The position numbers were made by a program, and so were the translations under genes. The notes under the pieces are model-generated. The model saw only the letters and a list, made by a program, of their open reading frames with translations. It made no database searches and was not told where the DNA came from. From a bacterium (GTDB lineage: Bacteria; Patescibacteriota; Minisyncoccia; Phycocordibacterales; UBA918), in assembly GCA_043719295.1 (NCBI GenBank), contig JAYSUD010000008.1:8216-72215 (forward strand): a DNA stretch of 64,000 nucleotides. The letters run 5' to 3'. This document shows, piece after piece, positions 3,601-64,000 of this stretch; the first letter of the stretch is position 1, and every line of letters starts with the position of its first letter.

Positions 3601-3655
3601 TTGCAAGAGGTTGACTACTATTTTGAAGTATGAAAAATACTGACAACCTGAACAG
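3601..3655 (+). repeat. ~50-nt nested-hairpin module (TTGCAAGAGGTTG-[inner hairpin]-CAACCTGAACAG). Related copies at 26608-26656 and, inverted, 28254-28302.
   Basis: The outer stem AGGTTG/CAACCT and the flanks GCAAG...GAACAG are conserved. The inner hairpin differs between copies. Confidence 0.6.
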
Positions 3656-4089
3656 CTTCTGTAAGAAGTAAGCGACTTTTGCATTTAGCAGAAGCAGGAC
3701 GCTAAGCGTATAAGCTTCCTTGGAGGTCGCTTATACGAAGCGTCTACATAAGATACATATAGTCTCACTGTCGTGATACTTATGTATCTAAACTGCTGGA
3801 CGTCTCTTATATTAGGAGATTATGACTCATACGCATAAATATAAAAAGTAGTTTTTCCATAAAATTAGGTTATAGTACAACTATATCTATAGGACAAAGC
3901 TTGCACGAAAAAATCATAATGTCCTCAGGCTATTGCAGAAGAAGTGAGCTAAAATTAAAAAAACACATAAAACTGCCTTAAGAGGCGGTTTTAGTGCGAC
4001 AGAGCATCATCTGACATATACACAAGCAAAACGTTTAAAGCTGTAGGGTTGAAAATCATATTCCAACTGAGGTAATACGCTACGTTTTC

Positions 4090-11788: not shown

Positions 11789-12116
11789 TCCGGTGTAGCT
11801 CAGCGGTAGAGCAATCGACTGTAACATTGAACAATGTTCAAAATAGCAGCCTTATCGAGAAATTGATATTGCAAACAAGGTGAATTGCTGGAACCCCCAC
11901 GACACAAGTCAGGGCAATCAGCAGCCAAGCTTTTGGAGAAATCCAATTGAAGGTCCAGAGACTATCCCTTCGGGGAGTAGAATGCTCACAAATGCATTCG
12001 AAGCGCCTTGCACCGTCAGTGTAGTAATACAACCGGTGATGATATAGTCCACGCCATACAGTAACGTATGAATAAGTGTAATCGATTGGTCGCAGGTTCG
12101 AATCCTGCCGCCGGAG
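11789..12116 (+). tRNA. tRNA-Asn (anticodon GUU) interrupted by a group I intron in the anticodon loop. No CCA is encoded.
   Basis: Exons tccggtgtagctcagcggtagagcaatcgactgt + taatcgattggtcgcaggttcgaatcctgccgccggag fold into a 72-nt cloverleaf. Acceptor TCCGGTG/CGCCGGA, U8, T-loop TTCGAAT, G73, and a 5-nt variable loop that excludes Tyr. Confidence 0.75.
11823..12078 (+). ncRNA. Group I self-splicing intron (~256 nt) within tRNA-Asn.
   Basis: CCAAGCTTTTGG (P5-like), GTCCAGAGACTA (J6/7-P7) and ATATAGTCC (P7'/J8-7) match the group I consensus. The intron ends in G. Boundaries are good to about 2 nt. Confidence 0.7.
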
Positions 12117-12132
12117 CTTTAGAATTTAGAGA

Positions 12133-12162: not shown

Positions 12163-12184
12163 AGCTCCGGCGGCAGGATTCGAA
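12163..12184 (+). repeat. Perfect inverted copy (22 nt) of the tRNA-Asn 3' end.
   Basis: agctccggcggcaggattcgaa is the exact reverse complement of the tRNA 3' end ttcgaatcctgccgccggagct. Together with the tRNA it makes a ~35-bp inverted repeat enclosing the terminator. Confidence 0.85.
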
Positions 12185-12238
12185 GACCTTGCCTGATATC
12201 TTTTTGAGGTACGAAATAAAATAGTGACAAGGTGTACT

Positions 12239-12306: not shown

Positions 12307-12636
12307 CACATGACCCGTAAAGAAACACGCACCTACGCCGATCGAGCTGAGTATATGAAACTCGCTGTCATTAAACGTCGCAAAAAAGTGCGTGACATGG
12401 CACTTGAATACAAAGGTGGAGTCTGCCAAATCTGTAGATATAGTAAAAGTAAACGGGCACTCTCCTTTCATCACATCAATCCCAAAACAAAAGAATTTGG
12501 TATTTCATACAGAGGCTTTACTCGATCATGGGACAAGACAAAAGCAGAACTCGATAAATGCATTCTGCTTTGCATGAACTGTCATATGGAGATACACGAT
12601 GGAATTACAAAGTTACCAGAACTTTGCATTACCTGA
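12307..12636 (+). CDS. HNH endonuclease (zinc-finger HNH); likely a homing-type endonuclease tied to the adjacent intron-containing tRNA.
   Basis: MTRKETRTYADRAEY...CQICRY...SFHHINPK...CMNCHMEIHDG: HNH motif with CxxC pairs. Start taken at the internal Met after the promoter-like box. Confidence 0.7.
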   Translation, partial: HMTRKETRTYADRAEYMKLAVIKRRKKVRDMALEYKGGVCQICRYSKSKRALSFHHINPKTKEFGISYRGFTRSWDKTKAELDKCILLCMNCHMEIHDGITKLPELCIT

Positions 12637-26401: not shown

Positions 26402-26607
26402 GTGTTTTGTATATATAATTGACAATACAAAAAGCATATACCATCGTATACAAAATGTAAAGTTAACTTTACATTTTATCTGTGGAAAAACTTAGGGGTG
26501 ATAAAATCAGAGGATTTATGAAAACGAGTGAGAAGTGATACAAAATCCACCACAAGAGTATTTCCATTTTTATAGTCGTCTTACGACTCCATAAAAATTA
26601 GGTCACT

Positions 26608-26656
26608 TCGCAAGAGGTTTCCTACTCTTTTGGAAAAAGAGTGAGAACCTGTACAG
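26608..26656 (+). repeat. Nested-hairpin module (same family as 3601-3655 and 28254-28302).
   Basis: tcgcaagAGGTTtcctaCTCTTTTggaAAAAGAGtgagAACCTgtacag. Confidence 0.6.
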
Positions 26657-26708
26657 TTCCTGTAAGGAACAAGAGAGATTAAGAAGTGTGCCGTTTCCAT
26701 AAAACCTG

Positions 26709-27705: not shown

Positions 27706-28191
27706 CTATAAATAACTATCAAAATAGATTGCATGGCAAGTATAGCCACCCACATTCTTCTGCAAATAGTCCTGATGGTAACTTTCAGCAGGCCAAAAAC
27801 GTGTATACGGTTCAAGTGATGTAACAACAGGATTGTCCCAACGTTCACTCTCATTCACTACCTCAATCATCTCCTCTCCAATTTCTTTTTCTTTCTCATC
27901 TTTGTAGAAAATTGCAGAACGATACGAAGTGCCTTTGTCATTTCCCTGTTGATTTAAGGTTGTCGGGTTATGAACCTGGAAAAAGAAATCAAGAATTTGT
28001 TTGTATGAAATTACATTCTCATCATAGGTAACAAGAAGTGCTTCGGCGTGACCTTCATGTGATTCATACGTTGGATTTTCACCTTTGCCACCACTGTATC
28101 CAGCTTCAGTATCAAGAACACCTTTAAGATCACGAAAGAGTTCTTCCAATCCCCAGAAACACCCGCCAGCTATGATTGCTTCTTTTTGCAT
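27706..28191 (-). CDS. msrA: Peptide methionine sulfoxide reductase MsrA.
   Basis: MQKEAIIAGGCFWGLEELF... GCFWG active site. 161 aa. Confidence 0.9.
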   Translation of the reverse strand: MQKEAIIAGGCFWGLEELFRDLKGVLDTEAGYSGGKGENPTYESHEGHAEALLVTYDENVISYKQILDFFFQVHNPTTLNQQGNDKGTSYRSAIFYKDEKEKEIGEEMIEVVNESERWDNPVVTSLEPYTRFWPAESYHQDYLQKNVGGYTCHAIYFDSYL

Positions 28192-28250
28192 AGTTATTAT
28201 TATATTAAGAATTAACTTCTATTCTTTACTATCACCAGATAGCGACTCAG
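28151..28250 (-). repeat. Promoter/5'-CDS unit of msrA (copy 1, functional). Duplicated at 28487-28590 and, diverged, at 28321-28405.
   Basis: ~100 nt (ccccagaaacacccgccagctatgattgcttctttttgcatagttattattatattaagaattaacttctattctttactatca) recur nearly identically 336 nt upstream. Confidence 0.85.
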
Positions 28251-28320
28251 AATCTGTTCAGGTTGTCGCTCTTTTTCCAAAAGAGCAGGCAACCTCTTGC
28301 GAAGTGACATTTAGTCACTT

Positions 28321-28405
28321 CTCACCCCAGAAACATCCCCCTGCAAGTAAGGCTTCTTTTTGCATATAGTCTGATATATAAATTATGTACTTCTATTCTT
28401 ACAGA
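28321..28405 (-). pseudogene. Diverged decoy copy of the msrA start (would encode MQKEALLAGGCFWGEK*).
   Basis: On the minus strand reads ATGCAAAAAGAAGCCTTACTTGCAGGGGGATGTTTCTGGGGTGAGAAGTGA, then a hairpin and the nested-hairpin module. Confidence 0.6.
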
Positions 28406-28486
28406 ATCTGTCCACTCATTGGATTTTTTATTTCACTTCGTTCATAAAAACTCACAATGAGTCTTGCGACAGTCCCCCGGACTGTC

Positions 28487-28590
28487 TCACCCCAGAAACA
28501 CCCGCCAGCTATGATTGCTTCTTTTTGCATAGTTATTATTATATTAAGAATTAACTTCTATTCTTTACTATCAGTAGATAATGACTCAGG
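28487..28590 (-). pseudogene. Near-identical decoy copy of the msrA promoter plus first 14 codons, followed immediately by a hairpin and a U-run terminator.
   Basis: Minus-strand RNA: ...ATGCAAAAAGAAGCAATCATAGCTGGCGGGTGTTTCTGGGGTGAGACAGTCCGGGGGACTGTCGCAAGACTCATTGTGAGTTTTTAT. Confidence 0.7.
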
Positions 28591-40620: not shown

Positions 40621-40656
40621 AGAAATTCATTGTAACACCTTTAGCTCAACCGTTTG

Positions 40657-40709
40657 CTGCCAGACTTGGACTCGAACCAAGATAACATCCTCCAGAGGGA
40701 TGTGTCCTA
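40657..40709 (-). pseudogene. Partial copy of tRNA-Gln (anticodon arm through 3' end, lacking acceptor 5' and D arm) ~55 nt downstream of the intact gene.
   Basis: Minus strand: ...gtaggacacatccctctggaggatgttatcttggttcgagtccaagtctggcag matches the intact tRNA from the D-loop end to the 3' end. Confidence 0.65.
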
Positions 40710-40767
40710 CAGTCAAATGAGTGAGCGAAACGAGGAAATGGATATTTCTTATTATTTACGTGCTTTG

Positions 40768-40838
40768 CTGCCAGACTTGGACTCGAACCAAGATGATATC
40801 CTCCAGAGGGATACATCCTACCATTAGATGATCTGGCA
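40768..40838 (-). tRNA. tRNA-Gln (anticodon CUG); no encoded CCA.
   Basis: Minus strand tgccagatcatctaatggtaggatgtatccctctggaggatatcatcttggttcgagtccaagtctggcag. Acceptor TGCCAGA/TCTGGCA, anticodon loop CUCUGGA, T-loop TTCGAGT. Confidence 0.7.
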
Positions 40839-40908
40839 GCACAGCACACAAATTATGAAATATTCATTTACTCATTTCCGAACGAAAGCAGATTGTATGG
40901 TTTCCATA

Positions 40909-40926
40909 CCATTAGACGATCTAGCA
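40909..40926 (-). repeat. Short imperfect copy of the tRNA-Gln 5' end, upstream of the intact gene.
   Basis: ccattagacgatctagca versus ccattagatgatctggca (2 mismatches). Confidence 0.35.
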
Positions 40927-41114
40927 ATGTGTGTGTCTGTTTGTTTGTTTCTTATTTGTCTTTAACCTACCAATACAGCTTCATGTGAAGCGCTACTTTT
41001 CATGAAGCCTGTTTGGTACATTTCTTGCGTTTTTGACGTAAGCAACACTATAGTGCCAAAATTCCTCGATAAATCAAGCTTTGTATGTCCTTAAGTCCTC
41101 AACTCTTCATACAC

Positions 41115-45304: not shown

Positions 45305-45470
45305 AAGTACAGTATACCTTACAGGTACTGTCTACTCACTTGTTTTTTATCCACTCCGTTCCCAAAAGACTCAGTGAGTCTTGCGAAATGCTTCAAGCAT
45401 TTCTCACCATGCACCAGTAGCGAACATGTTGCTATGTGTGGATGAATACTCTGAAAGTGATACAGAATAA

Positions 45471-54300: not shown

Positions 54301-54592
54301 TATGCGGAGGTCTATTGTTATTGGAGAGTTCCAGCAGTTTCTGCTGAGCCTAGTGTAGGACACTGCTAACGCTGAGGTCCTACACTTGTCTCTAGGTCAG
54401 CAGCAGAAACTGTAAACAAAGTTCGCCATTGTCGCTTGCGTATATGCGGAGTCATATTGTTGTTGGAGAGTTCCAGCAGTTTTCGCTGAGTAACATTCAA
54501 AGCACAGCTAACGCTGAGGCTTTGAATGTTACTCTGGGTCAGCGCAAAAACTGGGTGAAAAGCGAATACTTGGAGCTTCGCAAGACTCATTG
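54301..54592 (-). repeat. Two tandem copies (C 54301-54440, D 54441-54592) of the hairpin repeat element in inverted orientation; a third partial unit at ~54640-54675.
   Basis: Both units share the tatatgcggag...gagagttccagcag leader and the ctcagcgttagc(a/t)gt loop (rc). Their stems differ but stay complementary (covariation). Confidence 0.7.
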
Positions 54593-54724
54593 AGGTTCTA
54601 TGGAACGAAGTGGAGTAGAATCCAATGAGTGGACAGCTTCTGTAAGAAGAGGAGTTCGCCATTCTCGCTTGCGCTCTGTGGCTCACTCCTTGCTAACAAA
54701 CCGTTACGGCCATACAATGAATTT

Positions 54725-57920: not shown

Positions 57921-58054
57921 AACAAAAACACATAACCACGAAAAAATGCCTCTCATTTCTTCGCTTTTCCTCCTAACTCCCCCATTCTACCACAGCAAAG
58001 TTTTTGAGTGGCTGTTTATAACTTTCAAAGAATCTGTTACACTTGCCCTTGCCT

Positions 58055-58136
58055 GCCTCGGTGGCGGAATTGGTATACGCGCACGACTCAAAATCGTGTG
58101 CCGCAAGGCTTGAGGGTTCGACCCCCTCCCGAGGCA
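58055..58136 (+). tRNA. tRNA-Leu (anticodon CAA), type II with a long variable arm; no CCA.
   Basis: gcctcggtggcggaattggtatacgcgcacgactcaaaatcgtgtgccgcaaggcttgagggttcgaccccctcccgaggca. Acceptor GCCTCGG/CCGAGGC, loop CUCAAAA. Confidence 0.75.
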
Positions 58137-58145
58137 CAATAAAAC

Positions 58146-58167: not shown

Positions 58168-58317
58168 TGTGACGAGGAGAAAGCAAACTTCTTTGCTTTT
58201 GTGAGGGTGTCGAAAGACGGAACGATGCCGAAGGCAAGTGAGCCGGGGTCGCAGAAATTTCTGAAAGAAATTATCTGTGACCGCCCACCGAGGAACAAGT
58301 GACTGAATGTCACTTGT

Positions 58318-58413
58318 GGGAGGGGGTCGAAAAGGTTGCCTGATATTTTGTGACGTAAGGAAACAAAATATCGATAACCTGTACTGAACATGTAATGTTC
58401 GATTCCCCTCGAC
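58318..58413 (+). repeat. tRNA-Leu flanking modules: inverted copy of the tRNA T-loop/acceptor (58318-58331) followed by the TGTAA-hairpin module (58386-58413).
   Basis: gggagggggtcgaa = rc of ttcgaccccctccc. Then gaacatgtaatgttc-gattcc-cctcgac. Confidence 0.55.
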
Positions 58414-58500
58414 TTTCCCCAATTTTTCTATAAGCTACTGTACAGACCAGTCCTTTGTAAGCAGGAGCTGGTTTCCTCACAATTTAACCGAGCACTGGAG

Positions 58501-59256
58501 GTGCAAATGCCCATATTCCTTACTTCCAAAGACCTAGGTTGTGGTATCTGGCTCGCATTGGACATGGACAACTTCGAGGAAGCTCTCGACTTGACCGGTC
58601 AAACCGGCGAATATATTGATGGTGTCAAAGTTCATGGCATCGTTGAAGACGCTATGAAGGAAAAACTTGGCAAGCTCCGTAAAGTTGGTGCAAAAAAAAT
58701 TTGGCTCGACCGAAAGGTCGATGACACCCCAGGGACCGTCAAGATCGTTTCGAGGAACGCTCACGACTGTGGTGCCGACAGAATGACCGTCATGGCATCT
58801 GCTGGCATTGAGGCAATGATGACTGCCATCAATCATGGTCCTGCCGAAATTGTCGCCGTCACCGACCTCACTTCACTTTCAAAAGCCGAAATTGGAATGT
58901 CGCGTGGAATGCCGGCCGACGCCTCTGTGCTTCAAAAAGCACAATGGGCAAAGCTTGCTGGAGTTAAGCTTGTTGTCTGTTCAGTTGAGGAGGTGGCTGA
59001 ACTGGACAAACGCCGAGGATATTCCAGACTGGCAGATTGCCATCTGGAACTGAATGGAATGAAGTTTACAGTCCCAGGCAGCAGAACCATCACGGACATT
59101 CTGAAAGGACAAGTGCGGAGCAACACCGCAATGGCGACCCTTGCTGCCGGAGCCGATGAACTGGTGCTCGGGAGCGAAGTTTGGGAAGCCAGACAGCCCT
59201 TCGATGCACTTCAACAGGTCTATCATTCAATTCTAGAATACATGAACAAACAATAA
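58501..59256 (+). CDS. Orotidine 5'-phosphate decarboxylase-family (PyrF/KGPDC-like) protein, in a GC-rich island.
   Basis: IWLALDMDNFEEALDLTGQ...KIWLDRKVDDTPGTV resembles the OMPDC-family (ALD..., D-K-D-P-T) motifs. GC ~55% versus ~40% for the window. Confidence 0.45.
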   Translation: MQMPIFLTSKDLGCGIWLALDMDNFEEALDLTGQTGEYIDGVKVHGIVEDAMKEKLGKLRKVGAKKIWLDRKVDDTPGTVKIVSRNAHDCGADRMTVMASAGIEAMMTAINHGPAEIVAVTDLTSLSKAEIGMSRGMPADASVLQKAQWAKLAGVKLVVCSVEEVAELDKRRGYSRLADCHLELNGMKFTVPGSRTITDILKGQVRSNTAMATLAAGADELVLGSEVWEARQPFDALQQVYHSILEYMNKQ

Positions 59257-59487
59257 AACCCTCCGGCGAGATTCTGCATACATTCACGAAGCTGAATGTA
59301 TCCAAAATCTCGCCGGACACCTCAAACCGTCGGTTTTGGAAAGTATACACATCGTATATTTCCCCAAGCCGACGGTTTTTTCTTTTCTTGTATTTTTTAT
59401 ATTTTAGAGTAGTCTACAATTCATCACCAAACCGTCACACATGTGACTTTATCGGGAGGATTGTACCTTGAGAGCACTTACAGAAGT

Positions 59488-60160
59488 TATGGCTGAGGCT
59501 CATACCGTCGCTGAAGTTTTTACCGACAAACACTTTATCTACACGGGAGGAGATCACGGCGATGGATACGTGAACTACAGACCACTTGGGGCTGTGGGGT
59601 CTGAGTTCCTTCTTCGCGAGGTATGTGTGCATCTGGTCCGCAATATGCTCATTGGAGTTCCTGTTGAGAAATACAGAAACATTGTCATCATTGGCCCAGA
59701 AACGATGGGTGCAAAAATGGTAAAGCAAATCGGTTGCACCTTGGAAGATGAGCTTCCTTATATCATCCATACGAGGACTTTTGTCAAAGACCCCAACAAG
59801 GCAAAAAGCTTTTTGTGGAATGCTGATCCGGAAAAACTGCTCGATGAAGATTCTCTGGTTTTGTGGATTGACGATCTCCTGAACGGAGGGACGACGTTTG
59901 AAGCAACCGCACCGATGATTCACTACTACGATGCACAGGTGTACGGCATCGGGGTTATCGGCGACCGCAGTGGACTTACTCCAGAAAAGCTTAGCGTTCG
60001 CCGTATCACATCGCTTGAGCAGTTTAGCCTCAAGAGATACCCTGAGGCAGAGTGCCCTTCTTGCCGCGACCACATCCCAATTGTTGATAATCTTGGACAC
60101 GGTGCGAAGTTCAAGGCAACTCATCCAAGCTATCAAGGTGGATTCATTCCTGCCAGATAG
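59488..60160 (+). CDS. Type I phosphoribosyltransferase (orotate PRTase-like), in the GC-rich island.
   Basis: PRPP-binding motif LVLWIDDLLNGGTTF. Start may be TTG at 59468. Confidence 0.5.
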
Positions 60161-60239
60161 CATGCATGACCTTCAACGGGCGGACTATACACTCTCAGAT
60201 GAGAATACATTGTCAGCCCGTTGGAGAAATACGACGCCG

Positions 60240-60285
60240 TTACCCTTCATCGGATACGGCGTTTCTTTTTTTCTAAAATTCAACA
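60240..60285 (+). terminator. Rho-independent terminator closing the GC-rich island.
   Basis: acgacgccgttacccttcatcggatacggcgtttcttttttt. Confidence 0.6.
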
Positions 60286-60525
60286 ACGAGAATTTATAAT
60301 AACAATACCAGTAAGGAAATTAGATTCTTCACGTCATCACGAATAACATGTACATACGCACACAAAATTATTGGATGATGAAGACCTTTACCTCACGTAC
60401 GCCTTTTTGGCGACTGGTTTTGTTTCGGTATATCATCTAACTCCCCTTTTTTTGAAATAACACAACAGAACCAGTCTCTAAGACTGGTTCTGTTCTTTTT
60501 GGTTCTTTAAATAAGGAGGAAGCCT

Positions 60526-60828
60526 ATGTCCGAAATTTGTTTTGTTCCTGTAATTGGGTATGTTCCAAGTATGCATCCAAATCAACAACTTGGATATGAA
60601 ATCTGGGTAAGTAATCCACAACGTGCAGTACCGTACATCTTCAAAACAACACTGCAAGAATATAACAAACAACAAGGTGGTAATCTGTTTGGACAAGAGT
60701 GCATGATATATGGTTTATATCTTCATGTATCTCCCTTAGCTTTGTACGCAACAAAGGAACAGGCCTTGTTTGCACTCGGGGTTTTTATTCCTACAAAAAC
60801 AATGTACGATCTTGATGCCGCGCGTTAG
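60526..60828 (+). CDS. Hypothetical small protein.
   Basis: 100 aa, no motif. Preceded by a hairpin/T-run at 60465-60500. Confidence 0.35.
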   Translation: MSEICFVPVIGYVPSMHPNQQLGYEIWVSNPQRAVPYIFKTTLQEYNKQQGGNLFGQECMIYGLYLHVSPLALYATKEQALFALGVFIPTKTMYDLDAAR

Positions 60829-60870
60829 CGCGGCATTTCTTTTTCCTGTTTCTTTGCTACACTTCCCAAA

Positions 60871-61797
60871 ATGGAATCACACAAAAAACCTAAAGTTATC
60901 GTTATAGTCGGCCCAACCGCTTCCGGAAAAACGGCGCTTTCTTTAATGCTTGCAAAACAATTAAAGGGCGAAGTGATTAACGCTGATTCACGCCAAGTAT
61001 ACAAAAGACTTGATGTTGGTACCGAGAAAATTACGTATGAAGAAATGGAAGGAATCCCTCACCACTTGTTAAGTATCGTCGACATCAACACAGTCTACAC
61101 CGCCATGGATTTTAAAAAAGATGCAGAAACTGCAATTACAGAAATTACAGAACGTGGCAATATCCCCATTATTGCAGGGGGTACTTTTTTCTACATTGAT
61201 ACGTTGTTAGGAAAGATGGGTACTTCTCCTGTAGAACCAAATTGGGAACTTCGGGAAGAACTGGAAAAATATTCGACAGAAGAATTGTTCACGTTATTAC
61301 AGAAAAAAGATCCACGGCGTGGAGATACCATTGAAAAGGATAATAAACGACGTCTCATTCGTGCACTTGAAATTGTCGATAAGCTTCAAAGTGTCCCCGC
61401 ACAAAACCCAAATGCAGAATGCCCATACGATGTCCTTACAATCGGTATTTCTGTTGAAAAAGAAGTCCTCAAAGAACGTCTTCGCATACGTGCGCAAGAC
61501 GCACTCACAAGAGGACTCATTGAAGAAACACAATCGCTCCTAGCCTGTGGAGTTTCAAAGGAACGGCTTTTAGAAATCGGCCTGCAGTACAAAGTTGTCA
61601 TGGAATACATTGACGGGATAATCACCGATACAGAACTAATCCAAAAACTTGGAGAAAAGAACTGGCAGTACGCAAAGCGCCAACTGCTCTGGTTAAAACG
61701 AAATGAGGATATTGTCTGGTTTAAACGCGAAGACACAGATGCTCTATCTGGAGTTGTATCAGAATTTCTCAAAAACTATCCAAAATCAATTCGTTGA
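60871..61797 (+). CDS. miaA: tRNA dimethylallyltransferase.
   Basis: VIVIVGPTASGKTALS...DSRQVYK...GGTFFY: MiaA P-loop and conserved blocks. Confidence 0.9.
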   Translation: MESHKKPKVIVIVGPTASGKTALSLMLAKQLKGEVINADSRQVYKRLDVGTEKITYEEMEGIPHHLLSIVDINTVYTAMDFKKDAETAITEITERGNIPIIAGGTFFYIDTLLGKMGTSPVEPNWELREELEKYSTEELFTLLQKKDPRRGDTIEKDNKRRLIRALEIVDKLQSVPAQNPNAECPYDVLTIGISVEKEVLKERLRIRAQDALTRGLIEETQSLLACGVSKERLLEIGLQYKVVMEYIDGIITDTELIQKLGEKNWQYAKRQLLWLKRNEDIVWFKREDTDALSGVVSEFLKNYPKSIR

Positions 61798-61855
61798 TTT
61801 TTAACCTATTTTCACATACACTGTTGAACACCAAGAAATTGGTACAAAGAACTAC

Positions 61856-61987
61856 GGGCCTATAGTTCTATGGAAAGAAATCAAAGATTTCTTCCTTCCA
61901 GCACTCACTCGGAAATGTAAGCGAGCTTCCATTTCTCTCGTGTCGTTTGGAAGGAGAATTTCCGGTTTCCAAAACCGTAGATCGAGG
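61856..61987 (+). pseudogene. Partial tandem copy of tRNA-Trp (5' end through T-stem 5' strand) carrying an ~83-nt structured insertion in the D-loop; lacks T-loop and 3' acceptor.
   Basis: gggcctatagttctatgg + [aaagaaatcaaagatttcttcc...ggaagg] + agaatttccggtttccaaaaccgtagatcgagg. The intact gene follows 18 nt later. Confidence 0.6.
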
Positions 61988-62004
61988 ACTTGTAGAAAAT
62001 ATTG

Positions 62005-62075
62005 GGGCCTATAGTTCAATGGTAGAATTCCGGTTTCCAAAACCGTAGATCGAGGTTCGAATCCTCGTGGGCTCG
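62005..62075 (+). tRNA. tRNA-Trp (anticodon CCA); no CCA.
   Basis: gggcctatagttcaatggtagaattccggtttccaaaaccgtagatcgaggttcgaatcctcgtgggctcg. Acceptor with two G-U pairs, loop UUCCAAA. Confidence 0.7.
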
Positions 62076-62462
62076 CTCGAGTAAAGAAAAAACATAATGC
62101 TGAAGCATTATGTTTTTTCTTTAGAACCTGACCTGCGTCAGGTTCGTGCTCGAGCGAGAGACGGAGACATGTCGCCTGCGACAGTCGAGTCGGGGTCGAG
62201 AGTACTTATGATTTGAGGAGGTACGACGATAATCATTAGTAACTCGTGACCGCAGTGAGCCCACGAGGCATAGCTTTTTGAAAAAATGCGTAGTGCGATT
62301 CGAAGCCCGATTGAGATAATTTTGGAGCGAAGCGAACAAAATTATCCAATTGGGATACTGGTCGTGTAAGCAAAGCTTTCTTTCACTGCATTCCTATTAC
62401 AAATAAAAATGAACTTTTCTTTGAATACTCATTTGTGAAAGTAACGACCGAAATTCCTCGTT
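62076..62462 (+). repeat. Highly structured tRNA-Trp 3' flank: nested stems pairing with the tRNA 3' end, then the TGTAA-hairpin/GAAATTCC module.
   Basis: gctcgctcgag (62071-81) pairs ctcgagcgag (62151-60). gagcccacgagg (62257-68) is the exact complement of the tRNA 3' cctcgtgggctc. Module gtgaaagtaacgaccgaaattcctcg at 62436-62462. Confidence 0.55.
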
Positions 62463-62981: not shown

Positions 62982-62996
62982 TACAACTATGCGTCG
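62982..62996 (+). repeat. 15-nt copy of the tRNA-Tyr 5' end, ~170 nt upstream of the intact gene.
   Basis: gcgtcggtggcagag is identical to the first 15 nt of the tRNA, followed by the hairpin gatgaaaagtgaatagtttcacttttcatc. Confidence 0.55.
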
Positions 62997-63165
62997 GTGG
63001 CAGAGCGGATGAAAAGTGAATAGTTTCACTTTTCATCTGGTCTACGAGCGAATGCGAGTAGATTGGTCGCTGTGAGTAATTGCGAAGCTTTTATGAACAG
63101 ACCAAAGGAGGAAGACGAGTCCAACGCTCAGAAACATAAAAACGTTCTTGAGCAAGCATAACATT

Positions 63166-63248
63166 GCGTCGGTGGCAGAGTGGTCAATTGCAAGAGACTG
63201 TAAATCTCTCGGCTTCGGCCTACGAAGGTTCAAATCCCTCCCGGCGCA
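63166..63248 (+). tRNA. tRNA-Tyr (anticodon GUA), type II with a long variable arm; no CCA.
   Basis: gcgtcggtggcagagtggtcaattgcaagagactgtaaatctctcggcttcggcctacgaaggttcaaatccctcccggcgca. Acceptor GCGTCGG/CCGGCGC, loop CUGUAAA, A73. Confidence 0.75.
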
Positions 63249-63260
63249 CAAAATACCAAA

Positions 63261-63285
63261 ACCCAAAGCGGATGCTTTGGGTTTT
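63261..63285 (+). terminator. Rho-independent terminator after tRNA-Tyr.
   Basis: acccaaagcggatgctttgggttttgtt. Confidence 0.7.
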
Positions 63286-63295
63286 GTTGTATTTT

Positions 63296-63456
63296 GGCGT
63301 CGGGAGGGATTTGCACCACAAGAGTATTTCCATTTTTATATTCCCTTCAGTCATTAAAAATTAAGTCAAGACCTTTTGAGATAGATTTGACTGAAAGGAA
63401 AATATACCCAAAAGGTGTACCGGTCATGTAATGACCAAAATTCCCTCCCGGCGCAC
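63296..63456 (+). repeat. tRNA-Tyr flanking modules: inverted 3'-end copy (63296-63313), a 27-nt block shared with 26546-26572, and the TGTAA-hairpin module ending in a direct copy of the tRNA 3' strand (63420-63456).
   Basis: ggcgtcgggagggatttg is close to rc of caaatccctcccggcgc. caccacaagagtatttccatttttata is repeated at 26546. ccggtcatgtaatgacc-aaaattcc-ctcccggcgcac. Confidence 0.6.
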
Positions 63457-63497
63457 TTTTTAAAAACGAGCGTCTACTTTTGTAGGTGCCGTTTTTA

Positions 63498-63878
63498 TTA
63501 GTGTTTAATTAATTCCCAAGTATTGTATAAAACTGGATATGATCCATCTATAAACCAAGCAAGCAAAACTATACTAACTAAAACTAGCGAAATGCCAAAT
63601 ACCATCTTATCTACTTCTCTAGGTGAATTTTTAAGAGATTTGAAACTTAAAATAAAAGCCAGAAGATAACTCGCGTGGATAATAAATATTCCAAAATTAA
63701 CAGATAACTGCATCCATGCTAAATGGGCAGTAGTTGGAACAGAAAAGAATGTCAGTATTTTTGAAAATACACCATTAAAAGTATCTATTGACGCCAATCC
63801 GGAAATTGTCACTATGATTCCAGCGAAAAACAAAACAAACGATAATTTATATTTTTTCATGCAATAAAATTTTAGCAC
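63498..63878 (-). CDS. Hypothetical membrane protein (4 TM).
   Basis: 126 aa, hydrophobic, no motif. Confidence 0.4.
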   Translation of the reverse strand: MLKFYCMKKYKLSFVLFFAGIIVTISGLASIDTFNGVFSKILTFFSVPTTAHLAWMQLSVNFGIFIIHASYLLAFILSFKSLKNSPREVDKMVFGISLVLVSIVLLAWFIDGSYPVLYNTWELIKH

Positions 63879-64000
63879 AAAGTTGTCTAATCAACTCCAG
63901 CTCGGCGCACAAGTCCCACCACTTGACCATCTCTCATTAAACGTTAAGCTTAGTTGGTTAACTGCACAGCTGTCACAAGGGAGGACCCCAGCATGCGTTT

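Follow-up and report, generated by a model that had tools for sequence, protein, structure and literature searches.

Small hairpin modules framed by inverted and direct copies of tRNA 3' ends in a Patescibacteria genome and its relatives

A 64,000-nt stretch of a Patescibacteriota genome (contig JAYSUD010000008.1 of assembly GCA_043719295.1, positions 8,216 to 72,215; Minisyncoccia, Phycocordibacterales, UBA918), referred to below as the window, carries beside its tRNA-Tyr gene and beside three further tRNA genes a small hairpin-forming module, which is framed by an inverted and a direct copy of the 3' end of the neighbouring tRNA gene. On balance, such modules probably constitute a Patescibacteria-wide family of small, hairpin-structured, non-autonomous DNA elements, inserted at TTCG^AA or similar sites and copying the local target both ways. 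Small non-autonomous repeats and tRNA-targeted insertions are of a known kind; the unusual property here is that each target supplies both arms anew, one per orientation. The repeat family is apparently undescribed: a literature search on tRNA genes, repeats and mobile elements of the candidate phyla radiation (CPR) yielded nothing relevant to the element, only tRNA and group I intron models passed the Rfam 15 gathering cut-offs with no family covering the elements, and at E ≤ 10 the elements matched only generic long-hairpin miRNA models, far under the cut-offs of those models.

The module at the tRNA-Tyr gene and its conserved fold

Genes were called on the 64-kb window with ARAGORN and Rfam (gathering cut-offs, and also E ≤ 10), and the features discussed here are collected in Table 1. 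The intact tRNA-Tyr gene is followed by an intrinsic terminator (terminator 1), an inverted copy of its own 3' part (IR-L), the module core and a direct copy of its last 14–16 nt (IR-R, 16/18), behind which lies terminator 2. IR-L and IR-R form the left and right arms of a closing stem, P1, and terminator 1, IR-L and the tRNA-Tyr 3' end together make up a ~43-bp palindrome (63227–63317) with the terminator at its centre. The core consists of AAGACC, the P2 hairpin, GGTGTAC (63414–63420), the P3 hairpin (ggtca-tgtaa-tgacc, 63422–63436) and the linker AAAATT (63437–63442). On the upstream side, nt 1–18 of the tRNA recur at 62991–63008 (17/18), directly followed by a 28-nt hairpin insert (63009–63036) and then by D-arm-like fragments (CTGGTC, TAATTGCGAAG) with more inserts between them.

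The 300-nt flanks of tRNA-Tyr were shuffled 5000 times and the three matches were scored separately; none of the 5000 shuffles reached the 5' (17/18), the inverted 3' (16/18) or the direct 3' (16/18) match. All three copies claimed in a preliminary description of this locus are present where it placed them. The upstream copy is real in sequence and orientation (+), but it is not a designed element, being the start of a decayed, insert-riddled pseudo-copy of the tRNA that holds at least two small inserts. A 'shared 27-mer' noted in the same description proved to be the conserved core of a structured element of ~100–150 nt, which a covariance model locates at the Asn, Leu, Trp and Tyr genes.

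Modules measure ~100–250 nt, most units being 150–250 nt long, and fold such that P1, built from the inverted and the direct copy, encloses the long hairpin P2 and the short hairpin P3. The general core reads AAGACC, P2, GGTGTAC, P3 (5 bp, loop TGTAA) and then RAA[AT]T. In fuller copies from other genomes, the left half runs from the tRNA 3' end through a terminator, the arm segment P1a, an additional hairpin (Px), TCGY and the arm segment P1b to ATTCG-AAGACC, and the right half continues through P2, GGTGTAC, P3 and RAA[AT]T to the 3' strands of the T-stem and acceptor stem, often with another terminator behind them. P1a is the complement of the acceptor 3' strand, the discriminator and the next base, and P1b corresponds to the T-stem 5' strand. 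Taken as a whole, the inverted arm covers tRNA nt 54–76 plus 1–3 trailer nucleotides and is usually split by Px, and the direct arm covers the same 3' part of the tRNA, starting at about R57/C61.

An alignment of 42 cores contained 22 consensus pairs, 16 of which displayed compensatory changes, with the covariation falling in P1b, P2 and P3; the unpaired AAGACC, GGTGTAC, TGTAA and GAAATT were invariant or nearly so, and folding z-scores ranged from −4 to −6. A 2-nt AT bulge in P1 was found in 42/42 cores (alignment columns 92–93). One pair is either C:G or U:A depending on whether the T-loop of the local tRNA reads TTCGAAT or TTCAAAT, which means that both sides of the stem track the local tRNA. 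The apex of P2 is often GGAGC-GAA-GCGAG, for example in L012, L041, L056 and at window positions 62325–62338 (L-numbers denote CPR loci; L101–L103 are relatives found via MiaA homologues), with covarying variants (GC/GC to AC/GT); it resembles the very stable d(GCGAAGC) DNA mini-hairpin.

Distribution, directionality and turnover

The pattern GTACN4CRTGTAAYG occurs with 0 mismatches exactly three times in the 64 kb (Asn 12234, Leu 58381 and Tyr 63417), each time downstream of a tRNA gene and on the same strand. Asn, Leu, Trp and Tyr share one order, namely terminator, inverted 3' end, ~100 nt, conserved module and direct 3' end, and four of the five tRNA genes of the window carry the module, tRNA-Gln being the exception. 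Covariance model R1 returned 10 copies from the window, the four tRNA-linked ones and six others. This common layout had been proposed beforehand, together with the judgement that chance was an unlikely cause; both were upheld, the latter by the shuffles, the motif count and the covariance-model matches, and the layout was also seen in dozens of other Patescibacteria genomes. At the Asn gene, the inverted copy (12164–12185) is complementary to the tRNA 3' end at every one of its 22 nt, two of which correspond to trailer bases, and is thus a copy of the gene and not of the mature tRNA.

Searching one-genome-per-species contigs with the exact pattern GTGTACN6TGTAAN6AAATTCC produced 99 matches, ~87 of them in Patescibacteria (Saccharibacteria, Paceibacteria, Kaiser-, Nomura-, Lloyd- and Taylorbacteria, Minisyncoccia and a few evidently mis-binned contigs) and 12 in other phyla. 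The latter were without P3 pairing, as expected for a chance background, and viral contigs contained no match to the exact pattern. R1 recognised 121 matches in 642 kb of CPR loci, in which the nearest same-strand tRNA typically ended 80–230 nt upstream of the pattern. In ~30 loci, the 12 nt after AAATT were identical (12/12) to the 3' end of the upstream tRNA, and these perfect cases comprised 13 tRNA types (Tyr, Trp, Gln, Asn, His, Ile, Lys, Arg, Ser, Ala, Pro, Glu and Val). Of 27 loci, 15 had a left arm (P1a) that was complementary at 9/9 positions to the acceptor strand, the discriminator and the base after it.

Directionality was assessed by counting 16-mer matches of at least 13/16 in the 400-nt flanks of 91 CPR tRNAs. 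Direct 5'-end copies were located upstream in 13/91 cases vs downstream in 1/91, direct 3'-end copies downstream in 38/91 vs upstream in 1/91, and inverted 3'-end copies downstream in 7/91 vs upstream in none (0/91). Among 40 bystander tRNAs, which lay in CPR loci without being the reason for fetching the locus, five had a direct 3' copy downstream, six an inverted one (at a looser threshold of at least 12/16) and seven a 5' copy upstream. The layout is strongly directional and far from chance, and it is facultative, not a rule for all tRNAs, which argues against an obligatory role in tRNA expression. An extension of the distance and orientation rules to every tRNA gene, which the preliminary description had put forward for checking, failed, since tRNA-Gln, most bystander tRNAs and the tRNA-Leu genes of L102 and L103 have no module.

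Cores at different tRNAs of one genome were 0.89–0.94 identical (Trp/Pro, Trp/Ala and Tyr/Ser), and the median identity of cores at the same tRNA type across genomes was 0.68. As judged by sequence comparison, the arms are re-made at each tRNA locus. Insertion is polymorphic at tRNA-Leu in the relatives of the window, which are Kaiserbacteria- or Paceibacteria-type genomes from metagenomes. In L102 and L103, the gene is encoded on the other strand and no element follows it; in L101, it is followed by a terminator, an inverted copy, a core variant and a direct repeat of 31 nt, ~8 nt of which are flanking sequence from outside the tRNA, showing that local DNA was duplicated. In the window, the tRNA-Leu-plus-promoter segment is inverted and followed by a core of another type (Y-type, see below) and then by the main (GGTGTAC)-core unit. 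The inversion involves tRNA-Leu and ~28 nt upstream of it (57985–58137), as seen relative to the flanking genes for ParB and orotidine monophosphate decarboxylase in L101, L102 and L103, and it borders inserted modules.

Further signs of turnover include tandem units (L063, L066, L027 and L012), truncated copies that keep the 3' part (L007, L045 and L056) and nested copies (L075 and L004). The length of the direct repeat varies from 6 to 29+ nt. In L092, a terminator of the type CACTTTTTAAAAA...TTTTTATTAGTG directly follows tRNA-Tyr, whereas in the window and in L049 it comes after the direct 3' copy (terminator 2 in the window, after IR-R in L049), an order indicating that the Tyr unit of the window was added on the tRNA-proximal side. 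L049 itself holds a Tyr-armed array with no intact tRNA within 8 kb. ORFan cargo of 1.2–1.7 kb separates tRNA and element in L001, L008 and L089; in the window, a third, degenerate tRNA-Tyr 3' copy lies past an ORFan (63498–63878, −) without Pfam family, possibly a further case of cargo enclosed by repeat copies. No identical protein was found for either of the two open reading frames (ORFs) adjoining tRNA-Tyr. An independent Logan assembly was identical (100%) to the window over 58379–62454. The contigs of L101, L102 and L103 stop 20–310 nt after miaA, at repeated tRNA-Trp pieces. Modules probably cause assembly breaks in metagenome-assembled CPR genomes.

Copies at other sites, nested inserts and neighbouring features

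The core copies of the window found at non-tRNA intergenic sites have a common left end, GTGAGA-Px-TCGC-AAGAC, and those starting at 3605 and 54571 are flanked by ~10-nt direct repeats (GACTTTTGCA and GGAG(C)TTCGC, respectively). Core and Px hairpin are also found upstream of relA and other genes. At msrA, the first ~41 nt of the gene (ATGCAAAAAGAAGC...TTCTGGGG) are present three times (starts at 28530, 28365 and 28191, within 28150–28560, −); both truncated copies run straight into a hairpin-core element, and in the first one, the TAA within the P3 loop (TGTAA) terminates the reading frame.

The tRNA 5' copies upstream of intact genes are interrupted tRNA copies, comprising nt 1 to ~20–43, a small insert and sometimes more tRNA-derived bases, after which an AT-rich spacer leads to the intact gene. 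Inserts of the same core family were identified in L026, L030, L069 and L093, and in L069, 14 nt upstream of the tRNA were duplicated too. The insert upstream of tRNA-Trp is a different, ~86-nt element (window, L050, L058 and L103). In the window, the interrupted Trp copy (61856–62004, +) consists of nt 1–18/20, the ~86-nt insert at GGTA^GAAT and nt 20/24–34/51; it is also found in L050, L058 and L103/L104 and is kept in relatives with MiaA only 65% identical. This insert aligned weakly (scores 19–32) with the flanks of tRNA-Gln and with the region upstream of tRNA-Tyr.

Modules carry inserts of their own. The ~54-nt insert of the Tyr element has the structure CACCACAAGAGTATTTCC-ATTTTTATA-hairpin-AAAAATTAgGTC and occupies the ATT(T/C)G-core junction both there and in L049 (599–652); a third site (26548–26600, +) lies inside the Px hairpin of another element and includes an exact 18-mer copy at 26548. 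In the Trp element, the P3 hairpin loop is split by a ~71-nt insert (62370–62440, +), flanked by GTAA and bounded by the 7-bp inverted repeat CTTTCAC/GTGAAAG. Several distinct small inserts thus share the T-loop-derived junction or hairpin loops. Hairpin loops of modules, as in the Trp P3 loop, appear to be insertion sites themselves. At Leu and Trp, an extra Y-type core (AGACGG...GAGYCGGGGTCG...GTGACCGC) stands between the terminator and the first element. It is conserved, structured and framed by inverted and direct tRNA 3' copies at Leu, Trp and in other CPR genomes, and had no match in Rfam.

The tRNA-Gln region (40640–40935, −), which is without a module, has a diverged copy of the first ~22 nt and a hairpin upstream of the gene and a ~50-nt 3' copy (nt ~20–72) ~58 nt downstream, so that an interrupted older tRNA-Gln copy may surround the intact gene. 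The group I intron of tRNA-Asn (Rfam RF00028, 80 bits) spans 11828–12071, and the gene was missed by ARAGORN; the same intron-bearing tRNA-Asn is present in the Kaiserbacteria locus L055. In gene content the window resembles a Patescibacteria chromosome; other ORFs encode RelA/SpoT, ParB, MiaA, a type IV secretion system pilin, MsrA and Dus.

Table 1. Coordinates of tRNA genes, module parts and associated features in the 64-kb window
Feature	Position	Strand	Basis or remark
tRNA-Tyr(GTA), intact, no encoded CCA	63166-63249	+	ARAGORN; Rfam RF00005, 53.9 bits
Decayed tRNA-Tyr pseudo-copy	62991-63165	+	sequence comparison, shuffle test
Terminator 1, intrinsic, 13-bp stem-loop, T-runs on both strands	63257-63286/63296	.	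sequence
IR-L, inverted tRNA-Tyr T-loop, T-stem 3' strand and acceptor 3' strand (ggcgtcgggagggattt)	63297-63312	+	16/18
Nested insert, ~54 nt (CACCACAAGAGTATTTCC...AAAAATTAAGTC), between ATTTG and AAGACC of the core	63314-63367	+	
Conserved core of the Tyr element	63368-63442	+	R1 match 63355-63447, 38 bits, E 7e-7; covariation
IR-R, direct tRNA-Tyr T-stem 3' strand, acceptor 3' strand, discriminator and next bases (ccctcccggcgcac)	63443-63458	+	
Terminator 2	63470-63489/63499	+	homologous to terminators of L092 and L049
Third, degenerate tRNA-Tyr 3'-end copy (TCAACTCCAGCTCGGCGCACAA)	63891-63912	+	82%
tRNA-Asn(GTT), split in the anticodon loop by a group I intron	11791-12117	+	
Free-standing HNH endonuclease ORF, 108 aa, directly after the Asn element	12310-12636	+	Pfam HNH
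Y-type core (AGACGG...GAGYCGGGGTCG-hairpin-YGTGACCGC)	58203-58284	+	also in L012, L049, L061
Y-type core (same type)	62151-62253	+	also in L012, L049, L061
msrA (PMSR)	27706-28191	-	
Core copy upstream of msrA	28215	-	R1
Core copy upstream of msrA	28394	-	R1
Core copy at non-tRNA intergenic site	3605-3669	+	R1
Core copy at non-tRNA intergenic site	26612-26670	+	R1
Core copy at non-tRNA intergenic site	45314-45382	-	R1
Core copy at non-tRNA intergenic site	54571-54661	+	R1

Origin of the modules and relation to known elements

If the modules are non-autonomous DNA elements, as we favour, the core would insert at the T-loop TTCG^AA or at T-loop-like sites, and insertion would copy the local target in direct and inverted orientation, possibly through a DNA or RNA intermediate and with an enzyme acting in trans. 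The likely route would begin with a fold-back at the terminator hairpin, and the palindromic TTCGAA would be the place of a second template switch or join: the triplication (direct, inverted, direct) has the terminator hairpin in its centre and the core at the second junction, an arrangement that suggests fold-back synthesis followed by another join. The tRNA gene would remain intact with partial copies staying beside it, new units would enter next to the tRNA, and older ones would be pushed outward and decay. The upstream 5' copy may be the mirror outcome, a decaying interrupted tRNA copy beside an intact one, and the tRNA-like closing stem would be a by-product of target copying, or a folded recombination site, and not a functional tRNA mimic.

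Several points weigh against this explanation. Neither within any copy nor in its vicinity was a gene for a transposase, integrase, reverse transcriptase or HUH protein detected, so that mobility is read from comparative patterns only, and the fold-back and template-switch route is a reconstruction. The only other assembly of the source genome is 100% identical, and no strictly empty/filled pair of near-identical strains was found. High within-genome identity of cores could partly reflect gene conversion and not recent spread, and the length of the direct repeat is variable. Finally, the conservation of GGTGTAC, TGTAA, GAAATT and AAGACC across deep CPR lineages fits a selected RNA or protein-binding function too.

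The search for an enzyme covered the scanned ORFs of the window, among which no recombinase, transposase, reverse transcriptase or HUH protein was detected, and 532 ORFs from ~87 8-kb CPR loci, where all-vs-all clustering revealed no recurrent family of these four kinds. The most recurrent families near elements were ClpB-like proteins, a YraN-like nuclease and housekeeping genes, and the cargo ORFs between tRNA and element were ORFans in which no Pfam recombinase domain was seen. Lacking a linked enzyme, the modules would be either non-autonomous or products of a host process. The predicted YraN/UPF0102-like nuclease (~120–170 aa) was the second most recurrent ORF family (six loci, L085 and five others); its recurrence may be mere synteny with particular tRNAs.

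A number of candidate explanations were rejected. The HNH endonuclease as driver was dismissed, as a homologue (69% identical) exists in only 1 of ~100 other loci, between tRNA and element in L086. A retroviral-type primer-binding site or copy of mature tRNA is contradicted by the inverted copy, which has trailer bases of the gene and not CCA. Core motifs of small ribozymes (hammerhead and others) are absent from the sequence. A group II/III intron with a GUGAGA... boundary would require exon continuity, which is absent, the gene restarting from ATG after the element. A guide RNA, with the left arm guiding the right flank in the manner of a bridge RNA or exon-binding site, does not agree with interrupted tRNA-Glu copies that carry the core without such complementarity.

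It is possible, and for now tentative, that the modules are a new class of T-loop-homing mobile element which rebuilds its closing stem from the target tRNA at each insertion, with a single-stranded DNA or an RNA intermediate conceivable. The stem could then, with the same reserve, be a folded attachment (att) site of integron or CTX type, for which tRNA genes would serve as landing pads of a trans-acting CPR enzyme; as a variant that we hold equally loosely, the folded stem might make the core a substrate of RNase P and RNase Z, which would release it as a small RNA. A functional tRNA-like RNA, in which P1 mimics an acceptor/T-stem minihelix and RNase P, RNase Z and the CCA-adding enzyme release the core RNA, appears doubtful to us, and so does a role of such an RNA as decoy, processing signal or regulator made from read-through transcripts. 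P1 does repeat T-stem and acceptor 3'-strand sequence and has a terminator behind it, as the tRNA itself does, covariation is strong in P1b, P2 and P3, nucleotides at the junctions show high conservation throughout the phylum, UGUAA in the P3 loop would fit the T-loop-like U-N-N-R-A motif, and copies in L003, L072 and L092 have CCA after the discriminator where the tRNA gene is without it. However, CCA is inconsistent, being absent in most copies, pairing of the left arm extends over the discriminator and one base further, and ~80 nt take the place of the T-loop. A tRNA mimic would have a free discriminator and CCA and would tolerate G-U on one strand; among 2255 pair cells from 105 distinct cores, G-U was counted 40 times vs 50 for A-C, arm mismatches were G>A in four and C>T in three cases, and the Tyr element folds equally well on both strands (−56.7 kcal/mol plus, −58.0 minus; z = −5.3 when folded as DNA). 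The unit sits behind a strong intrinsic terminator with no space for a promoter, and co-transcription would misfold the tRNA, the predicted RNA spanning tRNA-Tyr and the inverted copy forming a −84 kcal/mol hairpin that engulfs the T-arm and acceptor strand. Furthermore, most bystander tRNAs and the orthologous loci of relatives lack the module, truncation or nesting affects many copies, the same core sits at non-tRNA sites flanked by other local sequences without tRNA-like arms, and Rfam has no match. A '3'-mimic module' in the sense of a functional tRNA mimic, as the preliminary description had it, is not borne out, and these sequence features favour a module that would act at the DNA level, not as a tRNA-expression device.

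We regard it as unlikely that the repeats are attL/attR scars of prophages, integrative and conjugative elements (ICEs) or islands that brought an integrase into the T-loop or 3' end of tRNA genes and were later deleted, in the manner of cis-mobilisable elements (CIMEs). The T-loop is reportedly a known integrase sublocation within tRNA genes, as Williams is said to have described in 2002; the direct 3'-part repeats begin in the T-loop, tandem arrays lie on the tRNA-distal side, and some loci have ORFan cargo between tRNA and distal repeat. Against such scars stand the lack of any integrase in ~87 8-kb loci or in the annotated part of the window and of matches in viral contigs, the small units with their conserved covarying core, an inverted target copy that is foreign to att scars, the range of repeat lengths (6–29 nt), arms re-templated at different tRNAs around near-identical cores, and core copies beside msrA 5' fragments. 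Quite unlikely, in our view, is a scenario with no mobile element at all, in which hairpin-driven template switching at terminators (quasi-palindrome correction or events of the DUP-TRP/INV-DUP type) takes place around a host-selected core; that the core is a terminator/insulator or a protein-binding site stimulating such events seems no easier to accept. The triplication centred on the terminator hairpin, a duplication reaching into flank beyond the tRNA, varying repeat lengths, the lack of a linked enzyme and the duplication of flanking genes wherever the core sits would all agree with template switching, but it leaves unexplained the near-identical cores at different tRNAs of one genome, the repeated use of one TTCG^AA junction or of hairpin loops by nested inserts, and the appearance of a core where relatives have none. 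That the similarity is fortuitous, or that a repeat-rich locus was misassembled, has a practically negligible likelihood: relatives' contigs do break right after miaA at the Trp repeats, indicating regions that are hard to assemble, but the shuffles, the identical Logan assembly and the recurrence of the architecture in ~87 independent genomes speak against it.

Like tRNA-targeted prophages, ICEs, islands and CIMEs, the modules use a T-loop/3'-end site, leave an intact gene with a partial 3' direct repeat at the distal end and accrete in tandem; the downstream and upstream counts of direct 3' copies (38/91 vs 1/91) reveal inserts that have the intact tRNA at one end and a direct repeat of its 3' part at the other. 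Unlike those elements, they measure 0.15–0.25 kb, possess a covarying hairpin core, an extra inverted copy and a repeat of variable length, have no integrase in the loci scanned, and also occur as cores at the 5' ends of protein genes. With integron attC sites and the folded single-stranded attP of CTX phage they share an imperfect palindrome of conserved structure and variable sequence with extrahelical bases (here the AT bulge), and with integron cassettes a distal location in short cassettes that are often ORFans and the entry of new units next to the primary site. In contrast to attC, the module stem copies 12–22 nt of the local tRNA; no R''/R' cores (RYYYAAC / GTTRRRY) were present in module sequences and no adjacent integrase in the ~87 8-kb loci, and we know of no excised circles of the module.

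Repetitive extragenic palindromic (REP) elements, bacterial interspersed mosaic elements (BIMEs), REPINs, Rickettsia palindromic elements (RPEs), Correia and BOX repeats and other bacterial repeats resembling miniature inverted-repeat transposable elements (MITEs) are likewise short, abundant, intergenic, hairpin-forming, non-autonomous and often tandem or nested, and some of them insert into RNA genes. The conserved GTAC 5' of the P3 foot resembles the GTAG of REP. The ends of REP- and MITE-like families are fixed, whereas the outer arms of the module are re-made per target, direct and inverted; measured against MITEs, the core ends (AAGACC.../...P3) are not inverted repeats, the arms are locus-specific and the repeat length is 6–29+ nt. 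No gene for a REP-associated tyrosine transposase (RAYT/Y1) was noted in the CPR loci clustered, which are 8-kb loci, not whole genomes. The tRNA-like domain of tmRNA, viral tRNA-like structures and mascRNA similarly have a helix reproducing acceptor and T-stem and ending in tRNA 3' sequence, but the module differs from them in its paired discriminator, inconsistent CCA, ~80 nt replacing the T-loop, lack of strand asymmetry and facultative occurrence. The triplication itself, with one junction at an inverted repeat (the terminator), is like that of DUP-TRP/INV-DUP template switches, from which the module is set apart by its scale of 20–60 nt, its recurrence and the conserved core that is always at the second junction.

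Patescibacteria have tiny genomes of ~1 Mb, and despite this, at least 10 module copies are present in this 64-kb window alone. Covariance model R1 could serve to mask or annotate the repeats and to keep tRNA fragments from being called as genes. Should the modules be mobile, they would be a major source, unannotated to date, of rearrangement (as in the tRNA-Leu segment of the window), of local gene-fragment duplication, of pseudo-tRNA pieces and of contig breaks in Patescibacteria metagenome assemblies. To our knowledge, no familiar mechanism of transposition or integration accounts for the re-making of both arms from the target in both orientations; for mobile modules, this re-making would point to recognition of the universal T-loop sequence, either by an enzyme or in a process linked to replication.

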